Part shown: in pieces, positions 1-30,422 of the stretch
Numbering within the stretch: position 1 is the stretch's first letter
Layout of the letters: the number at the start of each line of letters is the position of its first letter
IMG/VR virus record: IMGVR_UViG_3300036779_000147
Span: 1 to 30,642 of that record
Length of the DNA: 30,642 nt
From: a virus
Taxonomy: Duplodnaviria > Caudoviricetes
Reading direction: 5' to 3' (one strand)
The notes under the pieces: generated by a model
The model's database searches: none
What the model was told of the DNA's origin: nothing
Seen by the model: the letters and a program-made list of their open reading frames with translations, nothing else
Position numbers and translations under genes: made by a program

Positions 1-846
1 GGCAAAGCACGGCGTGGCTGGTCGAGGCTGGCAGAGCAGAGCTGGTCTTGGCGTATCGGGCAAGGTCTTGCACGGCGTAGCGAGGCGAGGCTGGCTAGGC
101 AAAGCCGAGCACAGCGGGGCGAGTCGTGGCACGCCTAAGTCTGTCATGGCGAAGCGCAGCCGGTCGAGGCTGGCAGCGCTAAGCACGGCTCTGCGGTGCT
201 GAGCAGGACAGTGTCCGGCTCGGCACGGCCCAGCCGAGCGCGTCGAGGCTGGCTCTGTATGGCTTTGCGCGGCAGAGGCGAGGCGCGGCCGGTCGAAGCA
301 AGGCTGGCGGGGTTTAGCCTGTCTTGGCCGGGCTTGGCGTAGCGTCGCGATGCGTGGCTGGCAAGGCTGGGCTCGTCAACGCACGGCAAGTCGTTGCCGG
401 TCCTGGCGAGGCGCGGCGCAGTATGGCGAGGCCGGCGCGGCGCGGCAGCTCCGAGCAGCGCATTGCTCGTCGCTGCCCTGCTTGGTCTGGCTGGGCATGG
501 CGAGGCTGGCGCAGCAAGTCCCTGCGCAGCGAGGTGCGGCAGGGTAGGCAGTGTCCAGCACGTCACGGCGAGGCTGGCAGTGCGCGGCCCGGTGATGCTC
601 GGCACGGTAGGTCCGAGCTGGGCACGCCGTGGTCGGGCGTGGCGTTGCACGGCAAGGCTGGCGCGGCTTTGCTGGTCTTGGCGCAGCAACGCGTGGTTTG
701 GCGCGGCGTGGCGAGGCTGGCCTTGCATGGCACGTCCTGGCTGATCCGCGTTGGGCGAGCCCGGGCGAAGCGAGGCTGGCGGAGCGGAGCATGGCACAGC
801 CGGTCCAGGCGCGGTATGCCTCGGTCAGGCTGGGCAAAGCTGGCAA
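1..846 (+). repeat. Array of degenerate GGY-NN pentamers in 12 complete units (plus a partial one) separated by a 4-nt GGCT phase shift; truncated at the left edge
   Basis: Hand parse. Units start at 30, 93, 172, 251, 306, 360, 434, 508, 576, 660, 719, 778 and 842 (lengths 63, 79, 79, 55, 54, 74, 74, 68, 84, 59, 59, 64; 9 of 12 are 5n+4). Example unit 778-841: ggcGG agcGG agcAT ggcAC agcCG gtcCA ggcGC ggtAT gccTC ggtCA ggcTG ggcAA agct. Position 3 of every full pentamer in my parse is C or T, and the boundary consensus is C(G/A)AGGCTGGC. Confidence 0.95.
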
Positions 847-851
847 GCGAG

Positions 852-882
852 AGGGCGAGTCCTTCGGGACTCGCCCTTTTTT
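852..882 (+). terminator. Rho-independent terminator closing the array
   Basis: AGGGCGAGTCC-TTCG-GGACTCGCCCT is a perfect 11-bp stem with a C(UUCG)G tetraloop, followed by a T run that overlaps the stop of the convergent Cro-like gene. Confidence 0.93.
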
Positions 883-1117
883 AACCAAAGAGATCGGGCC
901 GTTGTACCTCACGCGGAATGCCGAACTCTTGTTCAATTACCCGCATATGTTTGAGCGGCACCAGCTTCCACTGAATAACCGCTTGTCTTGAAATATTGCC
1001 GCAAATCTCCATGACGCGCCCGATGCGATCGTGCGCCGTCAAGAATTCGATCACCTGTTCCGGCGTCTTGATTCGCTTCGCTGTCAGCGTCGTCGTGTTG
1101 AGCACACCGCGGGGCAT
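881..1117 (-). CDS. Cro/YdaS-like helix-turn-helix transcriptional regulator (78 aa)
   Basis: C-terminal part of the 881..2479 ORF, from the ATG at 1117: MPRGVL...ICGNISRQAVIQWKLVPLKHMRVIEQEFGIPREVQRPDLFG. The IS-QAV-QW--VP...IE---GIPR---RPDLF pattern is typical of Cro/YdaS-like phage proteins. Confidence 0.85.
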   Translation of the reverse strand: MPRGVLNTTTLTAKRIKTPEQVIEFLTAHDRIGRVMEICGNISRQAVIQWKLVPLKHMRVIEQEFGIPREVQRPDLFG

Positions 1118-1146
1118 CGGCTTTCCATCATTGAATAATCCACCGA

Positions 1147-1175
1147 AACATAGTGCGGCGATCGGCGATTTGCAA
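1147..1175 (-). promoter_or_regulatory. Putative sigma70-type promoter for the Cro-like gene
   Basis: Minus strand TTGCAA (1175-1170), 17-nt spacer, TATGTT (1152-1147), about 30 nt upstream of the ATG at 1117. Confidence 0.6.
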
Positions 1176-1177
1176 AT

Positions 1178-1204
1178 TCGACCTTGCAATTGTAGCAAGG
1201 TCGA
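1178..1204. promoter_or_regulatory. Inverted repeat, candidate operator in the divergent control region
   Basis: TCGACCTTGC-aattgta-GCAAGGTCGA has perfect 10-bp arms and a 7-nt spacer. It lies next to the palindrome ATTTGCAAAT (1168-1177). Confidence 0.6.
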
Positions 1205-1237
1205 GCTTACATCAGCGGATCGCAGAGAGAGGCGGCA

Positions 1238-2191
1238 GTGAAGAGCATTCAGTGGGACCATAATCCGGTAAGTGTGGGCGGCTGCTACGCCGGCATTCCA
1301 CTTGAAGAATACCATGCCGATTTGTGCGTTGGCCCGTCGGTGTCGTCGAGCGGCCTGCGGATCATCTATCACAAGAGCCCGCTGCACTTCTTCGATCAGT
1401 CGTATCTGAATCCATCTCGCGAAGAGCGTGACGAAGCCAAGGCCGATCGTGAATGGGCGGTGCTCGGCTCGGCCTCGCATAGTTTGCTGGTTGGAGGTGT
1501 CGGAAGTTTCCGCGATTCGTTCGTGATCCGTCCACGATTCGCCCCCGACCGCACCGGCCGTGCATGGCATGCATCGAATCACTCTTGTCAAGAGTGGATG
1601 ATCGCGCGCCATCGCGAGGGCAAGATGGTATTGACCGACGCCCAAGTCGAGGTCGTCAGAGGCATGGCGATCCAACTGTCCAAGCACCCGATGGTCGCCG
1701 GTGGCGTCCTTGATGGACTGATCGAGAGAAGTCTGATTTGGCGCGATCCTGAAACAGGAGTTTGGCTCAAAAGCCGGCCCGACGCGATCCCAACCGACTC
1801 GGGCGATGTCGCCGATCTCAAGACGACGCGCTCGGTGGTGATGAGCGATGTGGTCCGCACCATCGGCGAGCTGTCCTATCACCAACAGGCAGCGCTGATC
1901 GCCGACGGCCTCAAGGCCGTGTTCGACATCGAGATGAAGAGCTTCACGTTGGTGATGGTCGAGAAGACGCGGCCGTTCTGTGTGCGCGTTACCCCACCGA
2001 TGCATCAGGACGATATCGAAAGAGGTAGACGACAAAACCGCGTCGCGTTGCGCACCTTCGCCAACTGTCTGGAAAGCGGACGTTGGCCCGGTCCCGATCC
2101 CGGCGACGACAGCGGCCCACGTTCCCTGAACCTCTCGGTGCCGCAGCGCGAACGGATCGATGCGCGACTTCGAGTTGAGGGCATGATTTGA
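1238..2191 (+). CDS. recE: RecE/exonuclease VIII-like PD-(D/E)XK nuclease (DUF3799-type)
   Basis: Motifs EEYHAD...SVSSSGL...SP..F, GSASHSLL, IERSLIWRDPETGVWLKSRPD...VADLKTT, YHQQAA, VEKTRPF. GTG start after GAGAGG; RecT lies nearby. Confidence 0.88.
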   Translation: MKSIQWDHNPVSVGGCYAGIPLEEYHADLCVGPSVSSSGLRIIYHKSPLHFFDQSYLNPSREERDEAKADREWAVLGSASHSLLVGGVGSFRDSFVIRPRFAPDRTGRAWHASNHSCQEWMIARHREGKMVLTDAQVEVVRGMAIQLSKHPMVAGGVLDGLIERSLIWRDPETGVWLKSRPDAIPTDSGDVADLKTTRSVVMSDVVRTIGELSYHQQAALIADGLKAVFDIEMKSFTLVMVEKTRPFCVRVTPPMHQDDIERGRRQNRVALRTFANCLESGRWPGPDPGDDSGPRSLNLSVPQRERIDARLRVEGMI

Positions 2192-2197
2192 TGTCTC

Positions 2198-2635
2198 ATG
2201 GTCCAGTGGCCCGAGTGGCGTGTAGTTCGGCTGCGGGAGCTGATCGGCGACGGCAACATGTCGGCAGCCGAGATCGGCAAAGAACTCGGCGTGTCCAAAA
2301 ACTCGGTGGTCGGCAAGGCCGAGCGGCTTGGTCTCAGGCTCGCCGGGCATCGCCCACCGCGACCAAAGCCGAAGCTGCGAACCGTGGCACCACCGCCACC
2401 GCCGCCACCAATGCCGGAACCAAAGCCACCTCCGCCGCCCGATACGCTCACCAATCAATTCGAGGGCAGCACCGGTCACTATGCGCTGTTTGGGGTGCCG
2501 ATCGCCGGATGCCTGTGGCCAATCGGCGATCCGGCAAGCCAGGACTTCCGCTATTGCGGCGCCAAGCGGCAGGCATCATGCCCGTACTGCGCCGAGCACG
2601 CCAAGATGGCGTACCAACCGAGGAAAGACAGATGA
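2198..2635 (+). CDS. gcrA: GcrA-family cell cycle regulator homolog
   Basis: N-terminal W..RV..LREL..G.MSAAEIGKELGVSKNSVVGKAERLGL, Pro-rich linker, C-terminal CLWPIGDP...FRYCG....PYCAEHAKMAYQP. Confidence 0.92.
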   Translation: MVQWPEWRVVRLRELIGDGNMSAAEIGKELGVSKNSVVGKAERLGLRLAGHRPPRPKPKLRTVAPPPPPPPMPEPKPPPPPDTLTNQFEGSTGHYALFGVPIAGCLWPIGDPASQDFRYCGAKRQASCPYCAEHAKMAYQPRKDR

Positions 2636-2859
2636 CCGGTCTGCAGCTCTTCGCATTCCGCGCGCTGATCGTGCTGGCAACGCCAACCATAATCACATGG
2701 GCGGTCGTTGACCGACTGATCTCCGAATTCAAGTTGGGGTTTCGCATGGCATGGCTCGATGCGAGATCGGTGTGGGGCGATGCCTCCGATGCCTGGAACG
2801 ACGCCGCAACCATGACCTGGGCCGAGATGAAAGAAAAAGTGGAGAAGTCCCGTGAGTGA
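2632..2859 (+). CDS. Small hypothetical membrane protein (75 aa)
   Basis: ATGA overlap with the gcrA stop and AGGAAAG upstream. Hydrophobic N-terminus MTGLQLFAFRALIVLATPTIITWAVV. Confidence 0.7.
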   Translation: MTGLQLFAFRALIVLATPTIITWAVVDRLISEFKLGFRMAWLDARSVWGDASDAWNDAATMTWAEMKEKVEKSRE

Positions 2860-3802
2860 TACTGGCCAGACCCGTGAGCAGCGGCAATCGCTGCTGATTG
2901 ACTCCAAGCTCGACAGCGAGCGCATCGGCGAGATGACGATCTCCGGCTCGCAGCCGGGCGAGCTGGTCGGCGTCAAGTTCGCTTCGATGCTTGAGGTGAT
3001 GGAGTTCGCTAAGTTGATGGCGCTCGCCGACACGGCGGTGCCACCGCATCTGCGCAACAAGCCGGGCTCGTGTCTCGCCGTCACCATCCGCGCACTGCAA
3101 TTACAGATGGACCCATTCACCGTTGCCAATTGGAGTTACGAGGTCGAGCAAAAGGGCGTCAAGCGGATCAGCTATGAGGCGGCGTTCTACAACGCTGTGA
3201 TCCTCGCGCGCGCACCGATCGACGGCCCGCTCGAATACGAAATCCTCGGTGAGGGCGACGAGCGCAAATGCAAAGTGACGTTCACCTTGCGCCGCAGACA
3301 CAAGACGATCTCCTACATTTCGGAAAAGCTCGGCAAACTGCGACCTGGGCGCAACGAGAGCGGCACCATCAAAGGCTCACCGCTGTGGGAGAAAAAGCCC
3401 GAGGTGCAGATGATCTACAACACCGTGCGCGACGTGGCGCGGATTTACTTCCCACACGTCACCGCCGGGCTCTACACATCCGACGAGCTGGCCGACTTCG
3501 ACGAAGATCAGGTGACGATGGAGCAGCCGACGGCTGGCCTGCTGCAGCGCCTGCAGCCACGCGCCACCGACGAGGGCTTCAATCAAGCCACCACCGCCGG
3601 TCAGTTCGACGAGGCGATCCAGGCCGCGCGCGCGCCTGAGCCCGAGATCATCGAGCCGGAAAAGAAGCCACGCACCCGCAAGGGCGGTGCGACCAATGCA
3701 GCCACCGGTGACGACCCGGCGGCTGAGCAGGCGGCGTCCTCTACTGCCCCTCGTTCACAAGGGGACGCCGCCGAACCACAAGGAGACAAGAATGGCACGT
3801 GA
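2852..3802 (+). CDS. recT: RecT-like single-strand annealing recombinase
   Basis: VMEFAKLMA....VPPHLRNKPGSCLAV...ALQLQMDPFTVA...SPLWEKKPEVQMIY...ARIYFPHVTAGLYTSDEL, then an acidic disordered tail. Paired with the RecE-like gene. Confidence 0.85.
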   Translation: MSDTGQTREQRQSLLIDSKLDSERIGEMTISGSQPGELVGVKFASMLEVMEFAKLMALADTAVPPHLRNKPGSCLAVTIRALQLQMDPFTVANWSYEVEQKGVKRISYEAAFYNAVILARAPIDGPLEYEILGEGDERKCKVTFTLRRRHKTISYISEKLGKLRPGRNESGTIKGSPLWEKKPEVQMIYNTVRDVARIYFPHVTAGLYTSDELADFDEDQVTMEQPTAGLLQRLQPRATDEGFNQATTAGQFDEAIQAARAPEPEIIEPEKKPRTRKGGATNAATGDDPAAEQAASSTAPRSQGDAAEPQGDKNGT

Positions 3803-4196
3803 GCCGACCCCGATCCCCGACGATCTCATGCCCAAGACAGTGCCGGCTCGTGGCCTGTCATCCACCACGCTCGACAAGCTCGAAGACGAGATCGCCGAGC
3901 ACGTCAGCACCATCAAGACCACCGCAACCCAGGAGCAAGAGCTAATGCAGGATCGTCCCGCCGCCGCGCCGGCAACACCTTATGTGCCGGCAACGCCTTA
4001 CGCGCCGGCACCACGCCCGGCCACAGCCGTGATCCCGAACCAGCCGCAGCATCAATCGGCGTTGGATTTTCAATTCAACGGCAAGTCGCTGCGCGTCACC
4101 GCGACCTGCAACACCGACGCCGAAGCGCTCAGTTTGAGCGACCTGTTGACCAAGGTGGCGCCGTTTCTCGCCAAGGCGGACCCACCAAGAGAGTAA
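3792..4196 (+). CDS. Hypothetical protein (134 aa, Pro/Ala-rich linker)
   Basis: AGGAG upstream of the ATG at 3792; MAREPTPIPDD...; fits the operon tiling. Confidence 0.75.
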   Translation: MAREPTPIPDDLMPKTVPARGLSSTTLDKLEDEIAEHVSTIKTTATQEQELMQDRPAAAPATPYVPATPYAPAPRPATAVIPNQPQHQSALDFQFNGKSLRVTATCNTDAEALSLSDLLTKVAPFLAKADPPRE

Positions 4197-4198
4197 CC

Positions 4199-4585
4199 AT
4201 GGACGCCAAGATCGCCGCGATCGGCCGCCAGCTCGCCAATGCCCTCTCACTGTATGCCCACGAGCGCACGTCGCCCGCTGGCGTGCAGGCACAGAAGGAC
4301 ATCGCCCGACTGCACTGGGAGCTGGTCACGGCGGTCAGCGACGAGAACACTCTCATTGAGGGGACTATGGCCGCGGGCAAGGAGGTGGCACCGGTAAGCC
4401 CGCGCTTCATCCGCGGCGATGCCGTCCAGAAGACCACGGGCGACTATACCTTCAACGGTCGCGTGGCGTTCTTCGGCTACAAGCTCGAAAGCCACGTGCT
4501 GCGCTACGTCATACAGGATCGGCGCGGCCTTCTCTTGATCATGAACGAGCAGCAACTGCGGACAGCGCCAGATGAATCACATTGA
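4199..4585 (+). CDS. Hypothetical phage protein, possible C-terminal SH3-like beta domain
   Basis: Operon tiling. RFIRGDAVQKTTGDYTFNGRV...RYVIQD..G.L.I.NEQQL looks like small phage beta-barrel proteins (inference). Confidence 0.7.
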   Translation: MDAKIAAIGRQLANALSLYAHERTSPAGVQAQKDIARLHWELVTAVSDENTLIEGTMAAGKEVAPVSPRFIRGDAVQKTTGDYTFNGRVAFFGYKLESHVLRYVIQDRRGLLLIMNEQQLRTAPDESH

Positions 4586-5057
4586 GGATCACGTGACTAC
4601 CAAACCAACAATGAGCGGGCCGTTCGGCCGGGCGTGGCGCGTCGATACCCCTCGCGTTCCCGATGGTAGCGATGTCATCGTCGACTTCTATGTCGTCGAA
4701 TGTCCGGGCGCGCATCCGGCGTGGCACTCGTACATCATGTTTGTGATGAACCTCAAGCCGCGACCGGGACTCGAAGATGCCGCGATCTATCTGCCCGACG
4801 CCAGCCATGAATTCCATATCTGGGCGCTCAATCCCGAGATGCCGCGACAGCCGATCATCGAGGCCGGCGAATGGTTCGGCCGGGTGCTGCAGCCGATGAA
4901 CTTCGCCGCCCAGGTGTGCATGAGCCAACTCGAAGTCGAAACCAAGCTCTACGCCTCGGTCAACGATATTCTGCATGGCCGCATCTCACCAGACACCGAC
5001 TACGTGCGGGCGTGGGCGCAGCTGTGGGGCGACAACATGCTAAAGGATCGCCGATGA
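4572..5057 (+). CDS. Hypothetical phage protein
   Basis: 161-aa ORF overlapping both neighbours; globular composition (PGAHPAWHSY...ISPDTDY..AW). Start uncertain. Confidence 0.75.
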   Translation: MNHIEDHVTTKPTMSGPFGRAWRVDTPRVPDGSDVIVDFYVVECPGAHPAWHSYIMFVMNLKPRPGLEDAAIYLPDASHEFHIWALNPEMPRQPIIEAGEWFGRVLQPMNFAAQVCMSQLEVETKLYASVNDILHGRISPDTDYVRAWAQLWGDNMLKDRR

Positions 5058-14263: not shown

Positions 14264-15535
14264 TTATGGGCTGGTGAGGGTCGGCTGACCGATGGTCGGC
14301 GACGCCAGCGAGTACATGTAGGCGGTGGGCATGTAGATGTTGGTGCTGCTGCCGACATCGGCCTGCAGTATCGCAATCGCCGCGTTGATCGCGGTGAGCT
14401 GGTCGTTGATGTTGTTGAGCGCCTGTTGGACGCCACCCATCTGATCAACCAGCGGCCCGACCGCAGCTTCCAGAGCGGCAACCCTGGTTTCGAGATCACC
14501 GGTGAGCCCGGAGACATCGAGCGACAGCACGTCGTCGGCGAGCACCAGCGGCTCTTGGACGTTGATCGCCTCGGCCGGACCGCGATTATCGCTGGTGCGC
14601 CCGATCAGCGATCCCGACACCGTCTCCAGCGAAAAGTCGACGTTCAAGTTGGTGAACAGCGACTCCATGATGCCGTCGTAGCGGTGGGTCAGGCACACGA
14701 TCTGCGGGCTTGCCAGGATGGTCGACGGGATGCCAATGAACGGCGACTGCACGATCAGCGGGCGCGGCACCATACTACCGAAGATCGAAAACCGCAGCGG
14801 TGTGTCGATCTCAGGCGAACCGACAACGAGGTCCGCGGCCGACGGCATCGTAGTGGTCTGCGCCACCTTGAAGCCGCCCATCAGCGCAAGCCAGAAGCTG
14901 GTCGCCGTCACGTTGGGCGACCACGTCACGCCAGCGGCGCCGTTTGGATTGATCACGGTCGGCCCGGCAAGTCCGACCAGCGCATCGGCGGTCGCCAGCT
15001 TCTGGAATGGCGGCGACGCCCACTTCGAGGTGGTGTCCTCGGAATAAATTGTATTGGCTGGCCACGGCCGCACCGCGCACACCGCAACCATGAGATCGCC
15101 GCTTGTCATCGACAAGGTCGAGGTGATGGTCGGCTTGCCGGCGCCACCATTGGCGGTGCGGATCGTCGCCAACGGCTCGACGGAGGTGACGATGCCTTGA
15201 GCCCAAAACGCCGAGATCACCGTCGACGCCGCGCCCTGCACATTAGTCGCGAAGGTGATGTTGGTGTTGCCGTAAACCAGCTTGCAGTTCGGACAGTAGA
15301 ACAGCCCGAGCCACACCTGGGTAGTGACATCGTAGCGGGTGACCGAGGCGGCGAGCTTGTAGGTGTTGCCGGAATTGTCGGTGACGGTCGATGGGCCGAT
15401 CACCTGATTCGTACTTGCCACGGCGACGGCAACGAAGATCGTGCTGTTGGCAAAGATGCCGCCGAGGATGTTGAGCGCAACCCCTGGTCCCTGCATCGTT
15501 TGCGTGGACCCGAGGTCGTGCAGATAGGCGGTCAC
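14264..15535 (-). CDS. Virion/fibre-associated protein (423 aa): beta-rich N-terminal domain and C-terminal coiled coil
   Basis: TVTDNSGNTY..., SGDLMVAV; heptads LETRVAALEAAV...INDQLTAINAAIAILQ. Carries the fibre repeat motif (LVVGSPEIDTPL, SLASPTIGQPTL). Confidence 0.78.
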   Translation of the reverse strand: MTAYLHDLGSTQTMQGPGVALNILGGIFANSTIFVAVAVASTNQVIGPSTVTDNSGNTYKLAASVTRYDVTTQVWLGLFYCPNCKLVYGNTNITFATNVQGAASTVISAFWAQGIVTSVEPLATIRTANGGAGKPTITSTLSMTSGDLMVAVCAVRPWPANTIYSEDTTSKWASPPFQKLATADALVGLAGPTVINPNGAAGVTWSPNVTATSFWLALMGGFKVAQTTTMPSAADLVVGSPEIDTPLRFSIFGSMVPRPLIVQSPFIGIPSTILASPQIVCLTHRYDGIMESLFTNLNVDFSLETVSGSLIGRTSDNRGPAEAINVQEPLVLADDVLSLDVSGLTGDLETRVAALEAAVGPLVDQMGGVQQALNNINDQLTAINAAIAILQADVGSSTNIYMPTAYMYSLASPTIGQPTLTSP

Positions 15536-17466
15536 GCGTCGCGATCCTCAAGGGCGGCGCTGACGTTGGCGATCACCGACTTCCAGTCGCGGAATTTCGG
15601 CTGCCGGAAGATTCTCATGGTCGGATACCAGATGCTCGACTCGCCGGTGAGCCCCCAGCGCCAATCGGGATCGTAGGACAACAGCAGCCACACCGGCTTG
15701 CCGAGCGCACCGGCGAGATGCGCGATCGAGGTGTCGACGGTGATGATGAGGTCGAGCGCCATGATCGCGCCAGCGGTGGTGGCGAAGGATTCAAACTGCC
15801 CGGAATGTTCGAGGCTGAAGAACGGCCCGTAGTTTTTGACGAACGGCGCGATCAGCTCGCTCGGGATGTCGCGGGTATAAGGCCGCTCGCTGGTGAGCGA
15901 CCCGACACAGCACAGCCCGACACGAGCGCCGTTGAGCGGATCGCGGCCGTGAGCGAATGGATGATTGCCGTCGCCGCGCCAGTTGGCGATGACCTCGGCA
16001 TCGACGAACAGATAAGGCTTGCCGTCACCCCTGATCTGGTTCTCGCCGACATCGAGCACCACCGGTACCGACGGCAATGGCAGCTGCAACGTGTAGGGCG
16101 GCAGCGTGCGGCGCGAACGATACAGGTCACCTTCATGCGGCAGGTCAAGTGCTTCGCGCGATTGCGGATGATCAAACAGCTCGAACAGCTCAGGCTGCAC
16201 TTCAAGGAACGCGTTGGGCGCGCGATCGTGCACCAAGTCCATGAAGCGGGCGAACATGATCTGGTCGCCAAAGCCCTGCTCGGTCCAGATCAGCACCGGC
16301 TCGTCGGTCGGCGAGCCGTCCCAGCGCGGAATGGCTTCTCGGCATTCTTGTTCGTCACCGGCATCGTCGAGCCGCAAACCGACCCGAAAGTGCTCGCGCG
16401 CGCCGCCGAACATGTGTTTGTTGGCGTGGCCGTAGCGCAGGTCATAACCCTTCCAGCCGTCATGCCAGCGGCCGGCCTGCAGGTCGAGTAGCGCCTTGAT
16501 GTTGAGCGACGCCTTGTGCTCAGGATCAATGGCGAGGTTCTCCTCGATCAGCGCCATCGCCTCGTCGGAGCGCTGCATCAGATTCATGTAATGCGCGGTG
16601 AGCAGCCGCGACATCAGATCGTCGGGAAACTTCTCGGTGACCCGCTGGTAGCGCGCGATCTCGCGATTGAACATGTCGTCGTCTTGACGGATGTCGGCGA
16701 CCTCGTCGAGCCCGGTGATGTCCCACGGCCAGTCGTTGTCGGGAACGCACAGCATCATGATCGAGATCAGCATGCCGAACACGTTGCGCGGCACGCCGCG
16801 GAAGTTGCGCAGATTGTAGTGCGACGGCCGGTGCCAATAGAGCCGATAGCCGTGCTCGACCAGCCACGCGATCAGCGCCTCGCTCTTCTGCTGATCCTCG
16901 TTTTCGATGTAGATGATCGGCTTGTGCGTCGCGATCGTTCCCTCGGCGCCCTTGAGCACCTGCAGCTCGTGGCGATCGACATCGATCTTGATGAAGTTGC
17001 ACTTCGGCAGCTGCAGGCTGTCGATGGTGCGGCACGGTACTTCCAGCTCGCCGACGTTGATCTCGGGGCGGGTATAGGCGTGAAGCGCATCTTGCTTGGA
17101 GACCTTCACCATGCCGATGGTGTCGCTCGCCGCGGCCGGGATCACCACGACGTTCTTGATGCCGTTCTGATTGAGATTTGCTTGCAACAGCGAGACGTTC
17201 TGCACCGACGCCTCGAATGCAACCACCCTGCCGGCGTCGCCGACCAGCTTCGCCATCGGCACCGTGAAGGCGCCGATGTTGGCGCCGATGTCGAGTGCGA
17301 CCTGACCGGGACGAAGACACTTCTCGAAGACGACGACTTCGCCCTCAGAATATTCGCCGTACATCGCGAGCGACATGCCGACGAGTTCGTCTTCGTTGAA
17401 AACCGTGAAGGTGCCGTGGCGGCACTCGAAGGTGTCCGAGGTGAGCGTCGGCTTCGGCTCTAGCAT
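15532..17466 (-). CDS. FkbM-family SAM methyltransferase + TPR + GT-B (GT9-like) glycosyltransferase fusion
   Basis: YGEYSEGE...ALDIGANIGAFT...VVAFEA...IDSL...FIKIDVDRHELQVLKGA (FkbM); helical repeat segment; WDGS...LIWTEQGFGDQIMFARF...LDLIITVDTSIAHLAGALGKPVWLLL...DWRWG...WYPTMRIFRQ (TPR-GT family). Confidence 0.92.
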   Translation of the reverse strand: MLEPKPTLTSDTFECRHGTFTVFNEDELVGMSLAMYGEYSEGEVVVFEKCLRPGQVALDIGANIGAFTVPMAKLVGDAGRVVAFEASVQNVSLLQANLNQNGIKNVVVIPAAASDTIGMVKVSKQDALHAYTRPEINVGELEVPCRTIDSLQLPKCNFIKIDVDRHELQVLKGAEGTIATHKPIIYIENEDQQKSEALIAWLVEHGYRLYWHRPSHYNLRNFRGVPRNVFGMLISIMMLCVPDNDWPWDITGLDEVADIRQDDDMFNREIARYQRVTEKFPDDLMSRLLTAHYMNLMQRSDEAMALIEENLAIDPEHKASLNIKALLDLQAGRWHDGWKGYDLRYGHANKHMFGGAREHFRVGLRLDDAGDEQECREAIPRWDGSPTDEPVLIWTEQGFGDQIMFARFMDLVHDRAPNAFLEVQPELFELFDHPQSREALDLPHEGDLYRSRRTLPPYTLQLPLPSVPVVLDVGENQIRGDGKPYLFVDAEVIANWRGDGNHPFAHGRDPLNGARVGLCCVGSLTSERPYTRDIPSELIAPFVKNYGPFFSLEHSGQFESFATTAGAIMALDLIITVDTSIAHLAGALGKPVWLLLSYDPDWRWGLTGESSIWYPTMRIFRQPKFRDWKSVIANVSAALEDRDA

Positions 17467-29930: not shown

Positions 29931-30422
29931 ATGAACCCGCGTCGTCTCGATTTAACTGGGAAACGATTTGGGCGTCTCGTTGTGTTGAAGATGGATCACA
30001 TCAACCGTCACCAACAGTCAATGTGGAAGTGTCGGTGTGACTGCGGTGAAACCATCGTCACTAGCGGATCGACACTAAAGGGTGGTCGGTCGCGATCTTG
30101 CGGTTGCTTCAAAGCGGACAGGGCGCGTGAGACAGCTCATCGACACGGCCAAAGTCGAACGACCGAATATCGAATATGGGCTTACATGCTGCAGCGCTGC
30201 ACCAATCCAAACAACACGAAGTTTCATCTCTGGGGCGGTCGCGGCATCAAGGTGTGCAAGCGCTGGCGAGATTTCGCGAACTTCTTCGCCGACATGGGTA
30301 AGCGCCCATCGCGAAAGCATTCCATCGATCGCTACCCAGACATGAACGGCAACTATGAACCGACCAACTGCCGTTGGGCTACAGCCAAACAGCAATCAGC
30401 CAACAGCAGGCGCTGGGCTTAG
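29931..30422 (+). CDS. HNH-type homing endonuclease inserted antisense in the late operon
   Basis: DLTGKRFGRLVV...WKCRCDCG...RSCGC...EYRIW..M.QRC.NPN....GGRGIKVC.RW..F.NF..DMG.RP....SIDR...NGNYEP.NCRWAT; GAGGAGG upstream; lower GC than flanks. Confidence 0.92.
   Translation: MNPRRLDLTGKRFGRLVVLKMDHINRHQQSMWKCRCDCGETIVTSGSTLKGGRSRSCGCFKADRARETAHRHGQSRTTEYRIWAYMLQRCTNPNNTKFHLWGGRGIKVCKRWRDFANFFADMGKRPSRKHSIDRYPDMNGNYEPTNCRWATAKQQSANSRRWA

Follow-up and report, generated by a model that had tools for sequence, protein, structure and literature searches.

The last guide of a staggered VIPR array probably targets the cro genes of rival phages and weakly resembles the phage's own

The question raised by this locus is whether the last unit of a repeat array, which resembles the neighbouring cro-like gene when every third base is skipped, is a guide, and whether it is directed against the phage itself or against its competitors. 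The window is the whole of the Caudoviricetes record IMGVR_UViG_3300036779_000147 (positions 1–30,642; 30,642 nt). Its relevant features are the following.

1–841, plus strand: staggered VIPR guide array, 3' part, with a unit tail at 1–29 and then 12 whole units
778–841, plus strand: last unit, 12 pentamers and a 4-nt end, predicted guide against the Cro/YdaS helix
853–882, plus strand: G+C hairpin seen in the sequence, 10 bp, TTCG loop, six T; fold −27.7 kcal/mol, z −4.6
881–1117, minus strand: cro2 (P0003), cro-like gene of 78 aa, Cro/YdaS-like, its HTH turn longer by one residue
965–1000, minus strand: self near-match site, codons 40–51 of cro2
1238–2191, plus strand: RecE-like exonuclease VIII gene, divergent from cro2
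2198–2635, plus strand: GcrA-like gene, divergent from cro2
2852–3802, plus strand: RecT-like gene, divergent from cro2

Each pentamer of the array consists of a triplet that is nearly constant and a pair (NN) that is free, and a four-base repeat divides the array into units. The window units contain 10–16 pentamers each and are closed by the 4-nt repeat (..GA GGC T, then GGC). The whole array has 17 units; an overlapping contig, G003, contains another four complete ones as well as the beginning of the first. Unit length is exactly 5n+4 nt in 9 of the 12 window units and in 14 of the 17 overall. All 17 units have 9–16 NN pairs, and 16 of them end in the pair GA or AA, so the terminal pair is most likely boundary rather than guide. 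Strict GGY (GGC/GGT) accounts for 92 of the 171 triplets in the window array, the rest being mostly AGC, TGC and GTC. Three of the 12 window units (30–92, 251–305 and 508–575) contain an internal 1-nt slip, and these are either broken guides or units with extra staggered boundaries. No tail is present between units, and the only structured 3' element is the terminal hairpin, which abuts the stop codon of the convergent cro2 and is likely the terminator closing the array transcript. The promoter and terminator scan was empty and did not list this hairpin. Open reading frames spanning the array were without any family match and were regarded as shadows.

Neither Vipr nor Vap was found within the window itself. 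A scan with the boundary motif returned 120 loci, of which two (L047 and L054) are clear staggered arrays, the others being mostly repeats of 15 or 18 nt. The first of the two lies at the end of the viral contig G003 (55.9 kb), which overlaps the window and carries the following features.

Window 1–141, unstranded: overlap with the end of G003 (locus L047), 140 of 141 nt identical
G003 417–369, minus strand: first unit of the array, antisense decode TP[IM][IM]CHAW, a Vipr motif
G003 472–996, minus strand: vap, 174 aa, between vipr and the array
G003 1000–1875, minus strand: vipr, 291 aa, matching SUSP1 Vipr (PDB 36pp) at E 6.5e-7
G003 2091–2360, plus strand: cro1, second cro-like gene, passing the YdaS cut-off

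The single difference within the overlap is at position 127. Because G003 extends the array and bears vap and vipr, the window array is assigned to a staggered-array VIPR system. The match to SUSP1 Vipr, a lone RAMP protein, includes the GVGDWR loop, the vap product is 46% identical to that of the gene at the corresponding position in G002, and both reading frames are open. A complete kin phage, G405 (88.8 kb), is collinear with G003 and the window together; no Vipr and no array were detected in it, and one cro gene stands at the place of the cassette, versus two in the array phage. The cassette and one cro copy therefore look inserted or lost. The layout that we infer is cro1, then vipr, vap, 17 units, hairpin and cro2, then recE, gcrA and recT; the linkage of vipr to the array appears from the 141-nt overlap and synteny rather than from one contig. 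The other clear staggered array (L054; G002 1609–4725) belongs to a complete provirus, which also contains vipr and vap; this array has about 29 staggered units, and its boundary motif is as in the window array. A further record, G407 (L077), contains a vap that is distantly related, together with a Vipr-like match interrupted by one TGA. Searches for Vipr in sets of 6 and 401 genomes found none.

Much of this system is already described. VIPR comprises vipr, an accessory gene and GGY/NN pentamer guides with 9–16 repeats, and staggered vrRNA arrays have a one-base register slip between guides (10.64898/2026.04.26.720920). The guides skip 1 nt on the wobble base, and both the skip rule and the wobble argument were published there (10.64898/2026.04.26.720920). 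Hence the code and the wobble-escape argument proposed in the first-pass annotation, which held that skipping the wobble base makes synonymous escape ineffective, are not new. As far as the available parts of the two preprints go, each Vipr subunit takes one triplet, the NN pairs pair with DNA while each third base is skipped, and binding inside a gene represses on either strand with no PAM (10.64898/2026.04.26.720920; 10.64898/2026.04.26.720927). In the published systems natural guides are aimed at lysis-lysogeny regulators and at VIPR systems other than their own, engineered cro guides block lambda, and a structured 3' guide tail is described for type II (10.64898/2026.04.26.720920).

The present system shares with the staggered arrays of that paper (720920) the vipr and accessory genes, the GGY/NN pentamers, the register slip and the wobble skip, the stagger being compared by the text and the legend of fig. 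S18. It differs in that Vipr has 291 aa here versus 202 aa for the SUSP1 chain, the host is likely alphaproteobacterial, strict GGY occurs in only about half of the triplets, the units are without a tail, and a natural guide is probably aimed at the Cro subfamily to which the phage's own copies belong. According to the accessible part of another preprint, odd triplets occur in many VIPR-like arrays (10.64898/2026.10.21.760802). The vrRNAs of the SUSP1 family, as far as the accessible part of their preprint describes them (10.64898/2026.10.15.759431), also have wobble-aligned guides at genes shared with kin and anti-vipr guides, and the self-match of vrRNA-targeting guides is below the non-self match. 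There, however, the guides target vrRNA and the phages are mostly vipr-null, whereas the array phage here is vipr-positive with two cro paralogues, and its predicted targets are cro and vipr. The last unit is probably a genuine guide that belongs to a known system, and what is added is a natural graded series of self and kin sites on the Cro helix together with a near-self anti-vipr guide.

The two cro genes flank the VIPR cassette as paralogues (35% identical), and each heads a divergent promoter region. The cro2 product scores E 0.064 against Pfam YdaS, below the cut-off, and 95.9% by hhalign against a clear YdaS/Cro member; its relatives and the cro1 paralogue match YdaS and phrog_35. Both genes resemble the Cro/YdaS group (PF15943, PF14549; phrog_35) in encoding a short HTH protein with the helix xGI[TS]RQA[VI]xQW and the end RPD[LI][FY], and in the position of the phage's own cro divergent from an early recombination operon. 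They differ in an extra turn residue (CGG/CGN), in that cro2 falls under the Pfam cut-offs, and in that none of the three records (window, G003 and G405) yielded a CI-type HTH_3 repressor or a tyrosine integrase.

The NN string of the last unit is GG GG AT AC CG CA GC AT TC CA TG AA, and its sense decode, GG[IM]TR[HQ]A[IM]S[HQ][*CW][KN], covers the turn and recognition helix of Cro/YdaS proteins. The site at 965–1000 reads, on the minus strand, GGC AAT ATT TCA AGA CAA GCG GTT ATT CAG TGG AAG (GNISRQAVIQWK). It is the best skip-one site outside the array, with 17/24 nt (71%) and 7/12 dinucleotides matched; the bases matched in successive pairs are 2, 0, 2, 1, 1, 2, 2, 1, 0, 2, 2 and 2. Without the last pair the score is 15/22 (68%), which is the fairer figure because that pair is most likely boundary. 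The decode and the three counts given in the first-pass annotation were reproduced exactly. Its use of the self-match as in-window proof of the skip-one code is not good alone. When the whole window was searched on both strands, a score of at least 17 was reached by 221 of 1500 shuffles of the dinucleotide order and by 234 of 1500 base shuffles, and the self-match is weak taken alone because about 15% of shuffles equal it. For the 11-pair form, 15 was reached by 1198 of 1500 shuffles. In frame within cro2 alone, 17 was reached by 3 of 3000 shuffles, this null being chosen afterwards. Other registers gave best scores in the window of 15, 16 and 16 under skips of 0, 2 and 3. The best score in the phage's own cro1 was 16/24 (67%), and G003 has a site of 18/24; two runs of 100 shuffles each contained 2 and 11 strings that scored as high. 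As judged from sequence, the self-match at 965–1000 is real homology, but modest.

External collections were scanned with the same 1-nt skip register. Perfect external matches had been expected, and an exact target for pairs 1–11 was found in none of IMG/VR, the GTDB species genomes and the JGI metagenomes. Pairs 3–11 matched eight loci in IMG/VR, and all eight are cro-like genes in which the match lies in frame within LGITRQAISQWG and skips the third codon position. Pair 2, which was not queried, was matched in all of them (20/24, 83%), and one of the loci was tested against families and matched P22_Cro (E 9.8e-13). The eight viral matches form one clade of near-identical proteins (54% G+C) and therefore amount to about one independent event. 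The same nine pairs in reversed order, a single control, gave 0 matches in IMG/VR. With pairs 2–11, the GTDB species genomes gave one locus, an alphaproteobacterial YdaS/Cro gene that faces a CI-like S24 repressor, matched at 22/24 (92%). When all 12 pairs were searched with up to 3 mismatches in 401 alphaproteobacterial genomes, the genome of this locus was returned together with one new Cro helix, LGITPQAISQWK, at 21/24; the backwards control in this search also gave one match. In total, all 10 loci found with blind patterns (8 viral and 2 alphaproteobacterial) are Cro helices in the predicted frame at 20–22/24, and they represent about three independent lineages. Among 150 Cro-like representative proteins, a score of 20/24 is possible in 11 for the real guide and in none for 200 shuffled guides. 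As the first-pass annotation had predicted, near-perfect external matches lie in cro-like genes, and the base that is skipped is the third of the codon.

The guide also fits kin better than self. The closest relatives of the cro2 product are 83% identical, and these and the next tier mostly read GGI[TS]RQAV.QW. Kin Cro proteins have the same extra turn residue, which is spelled by the G-G of the guide, and the kin reading considered as a better-fitting allele is GGITRQAVVQWK. Because the amino acid fixes codon positions 1–2, minimum scores can be derived from the protein. Ten of the 13 nearest Cro relatives must score at least 18/22 versus 15/22 for self, and the remaining three score 16–17, 15–16 and 10–13 of 22; all 13 scores come from amino acids, not from DNA. 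Protein-led scans for close-kin DNA found none. On DNA, the cro gene of G405 scores 21/24, which is the best site in that genome and was equalled by 0 of 100 shuffles, and none of the other guides among the 17 has an in-frame match there. This kin cro locus (L133) was matched by a pattern shaped on kin proteins and hence not blind, and the other match of that pattern scores 19/24. The claim that the guide targets the cro of a related competitor is supported by the score in G405 (21/24 versus 17/24 in the phage's own gene). The exact target is unseen because the A-I-S of the guide suits canonical Cro and the G-G suits the kin type.

Target evidence was obtained for only three of the 17 units. 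In the first unit the antisense decode matches the phage's own vipr (G003 1652–1677) at 15/16, or 15/18 (83%) with the boundary pair, in wobble alignment. The nearest kin Vipr (P0162, P0281; motif TPIICHAW) reaches 16/16, which is seen in only 1 of 120 homologues. The self score of this short unit, which has two odd triplets, was equalled by 3–6 of 100 shuffles. It is the only unit with a self-match of at least 80%, the last unit (71% and 67%) and the 15 others being below, whereas the published VIPR search, with an 80% threshold, reported no self-match of at least 80% in three clades (10.64898/2026.04.26.720920). The third unit is the next-to-last.

719–777, plus strand: next-to-last unit, decode L[IM]TLWRW[DE]R[DE][DE], with an excisionase-like HTH gene as its predicted target

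It has one exact 9-pair match in IMG/VR, in frame at RITLWRWEREG (20/22) in the provirus L130, and the target reading frame matches phrog_66, excisionase/regulator, at E 3.6e-4. The other 14 units, scanned against the phage's own genome and G405, gave no credible match. Self-matches of the units starting at 93 (21/30) and 576 (23/32) are out of frame with real genes, and the G405 matches of the units starting at 93 and 360 lie in short frames; all of these were treated as chance. In the staggered system of G002, 0 of 27 scored units had a self-match of at least 80% beyond shuffles, and two short units were skipped.

We consider it likely that the last unit is a guide against the cro genes of rivals, that the phage's own copies (16–17/24) are spared, and that the self-match is family likeness. 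By analogy with the published system, the array would be transcribed from the vipr side to the hairpin, and the transcript would be processed into single guides and loaded on Vipr, with assembly of a filament. The guide would then pair, gapped, with codon positions 1–2 of the recognition helix of a rival Cro, and binding would silence the cro gene of the rival phage or prophage. The real target may be a kin phage whose Cro has the GG turn or a resident temperate prophage whose Cro is canonical. If the 80% search threshold is taken to separate bound from unbound sites, cro2 and cro1 would be spared by mismatches that change amino acids, the sole escape from a guide that skips the wobble base. 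The self-match would then reflect shared ancestry of the Cro helix, possibly lowered by selection against self-silencing.

An unlikely alternative is that the outermost guides autoregulate, the first acting on vipr and the last on cro2, as mismatch-damped negative feedback on the VIPR operon and the cro2/recE switch. The genes flanking the array are the only two in-frame self-matches among the 17 guides, and the first unit, read antisense with its gap on the wobble base, matches the phage's own vipr above the 80% line (15/16 if the boundary pair is left out). The three 3' pairs of the cro2 site match, and target engagement begins at the 3' end according to the accessible part of the structural study (10.64898/2026.04.26.720927). 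The same guide could also occur in close kin with a better-matching cro2 allele. However, weak autoregulation through the site at 965–1000, as the first-pass annotation had suggested, is improbable at a match of 68–71% with two pairs fully mismatched, cro1 has only 16/24, and the first and last guides both fit relatives better than self. The shortness, odd triplets and shuffle scores of the first unit, the 27 scored units of G002 and the published clades (10.64898/2026.04.26.720920) argue against it in the same direction. No report of VIPR autoregulation was found in the literature, and the preprint supplements (target tables, fig. S15 and S18) may hold cases.

It is very unlikely that the guide is a relic, either drifting from a cro that it once fully matched or belonging to a cassette moved beside an unrelated cro2, with a functionless self-match. 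This reading draws on the perfect target found nowhere in the three collections, the slips in 3 of 12 window units, and the single cro of G405 without vipr or array there. Against it, the register of the last unit is intact, 10 of its consecutive pairs are identical to living cro genes, and the vipr and vap frames are open. Mere chance resemblance of the NN string to a Cro helix fits the roughly 15% of shuffles that attain 17/24 in the window, but it is extremely improbable given the 10/10 blind loci in the predicted frame, the failure of all 200 shuffled guides where the real one succeeds in 11 proteins, and the empty reversed-order control.

Under the reading that we prefer, a guide against rival cro genes, the skip-one, wobble-skipping VIPR code is independently confirmed in a distant system whose array is staggered, and the unit is a natural example of a guide directed at the recognition helix of Cro. 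The natural sites of this one guide (22, 21, 20, 17 and 16 of 24) are a gauge for mismatch tolerance and for the discrimination of self from non-self in a PAM-less system. If guides directed at kin favour amino-acid substitutions in Cro, VIPR would help to drive the evolution of immunity types. A bolder proposal, which we regard as doubtful, is that the cassette both controls and remodels the genes around it. Feedback from the first guide would act on vipr and that from the last on the cro helix, forcing a change from GGIT to GNIS or GGIS in the two cro copies. If this were true, RNA-guided conflict among kin would cause phage immunity specificities to diversify, and guides tuned by their mismatches would serve as feedback regulators.

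The host of the array phage is likely alphaproteobacterial because a GcrA-like gene is present in the window. The lack of a tyrosine integrase and a CI-type repressor in the window, G003 and G405 suggests, but does not show, that the phage is lytic. Contigs of run X1, which may be the run that the window came from, break near window positions 128–140 and 1250–1277, and the depth is 5.4 for the piece between the breaks (128–1277) versus about 9.4 on either side; this drop may mean that the array end and cro2 exist in a second allele. A contig of run X3 resembles the array end (window 710–880, with 25 differences) and the start of cro2 (1044–1198), and its letters are unlike the window over 881–1043, as in a relative that keeps the array and hairpin while its cro has diverged. 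An HNH endonuclease gene at 29931–30422, on the opposite strand and flanked by tail-sheath and baseplate genes, was considered as Vipr and rejected. Amid the tail genes, 15532–17466 encodes an FkbM methyltransferase with a weak glycosyltransferase match.
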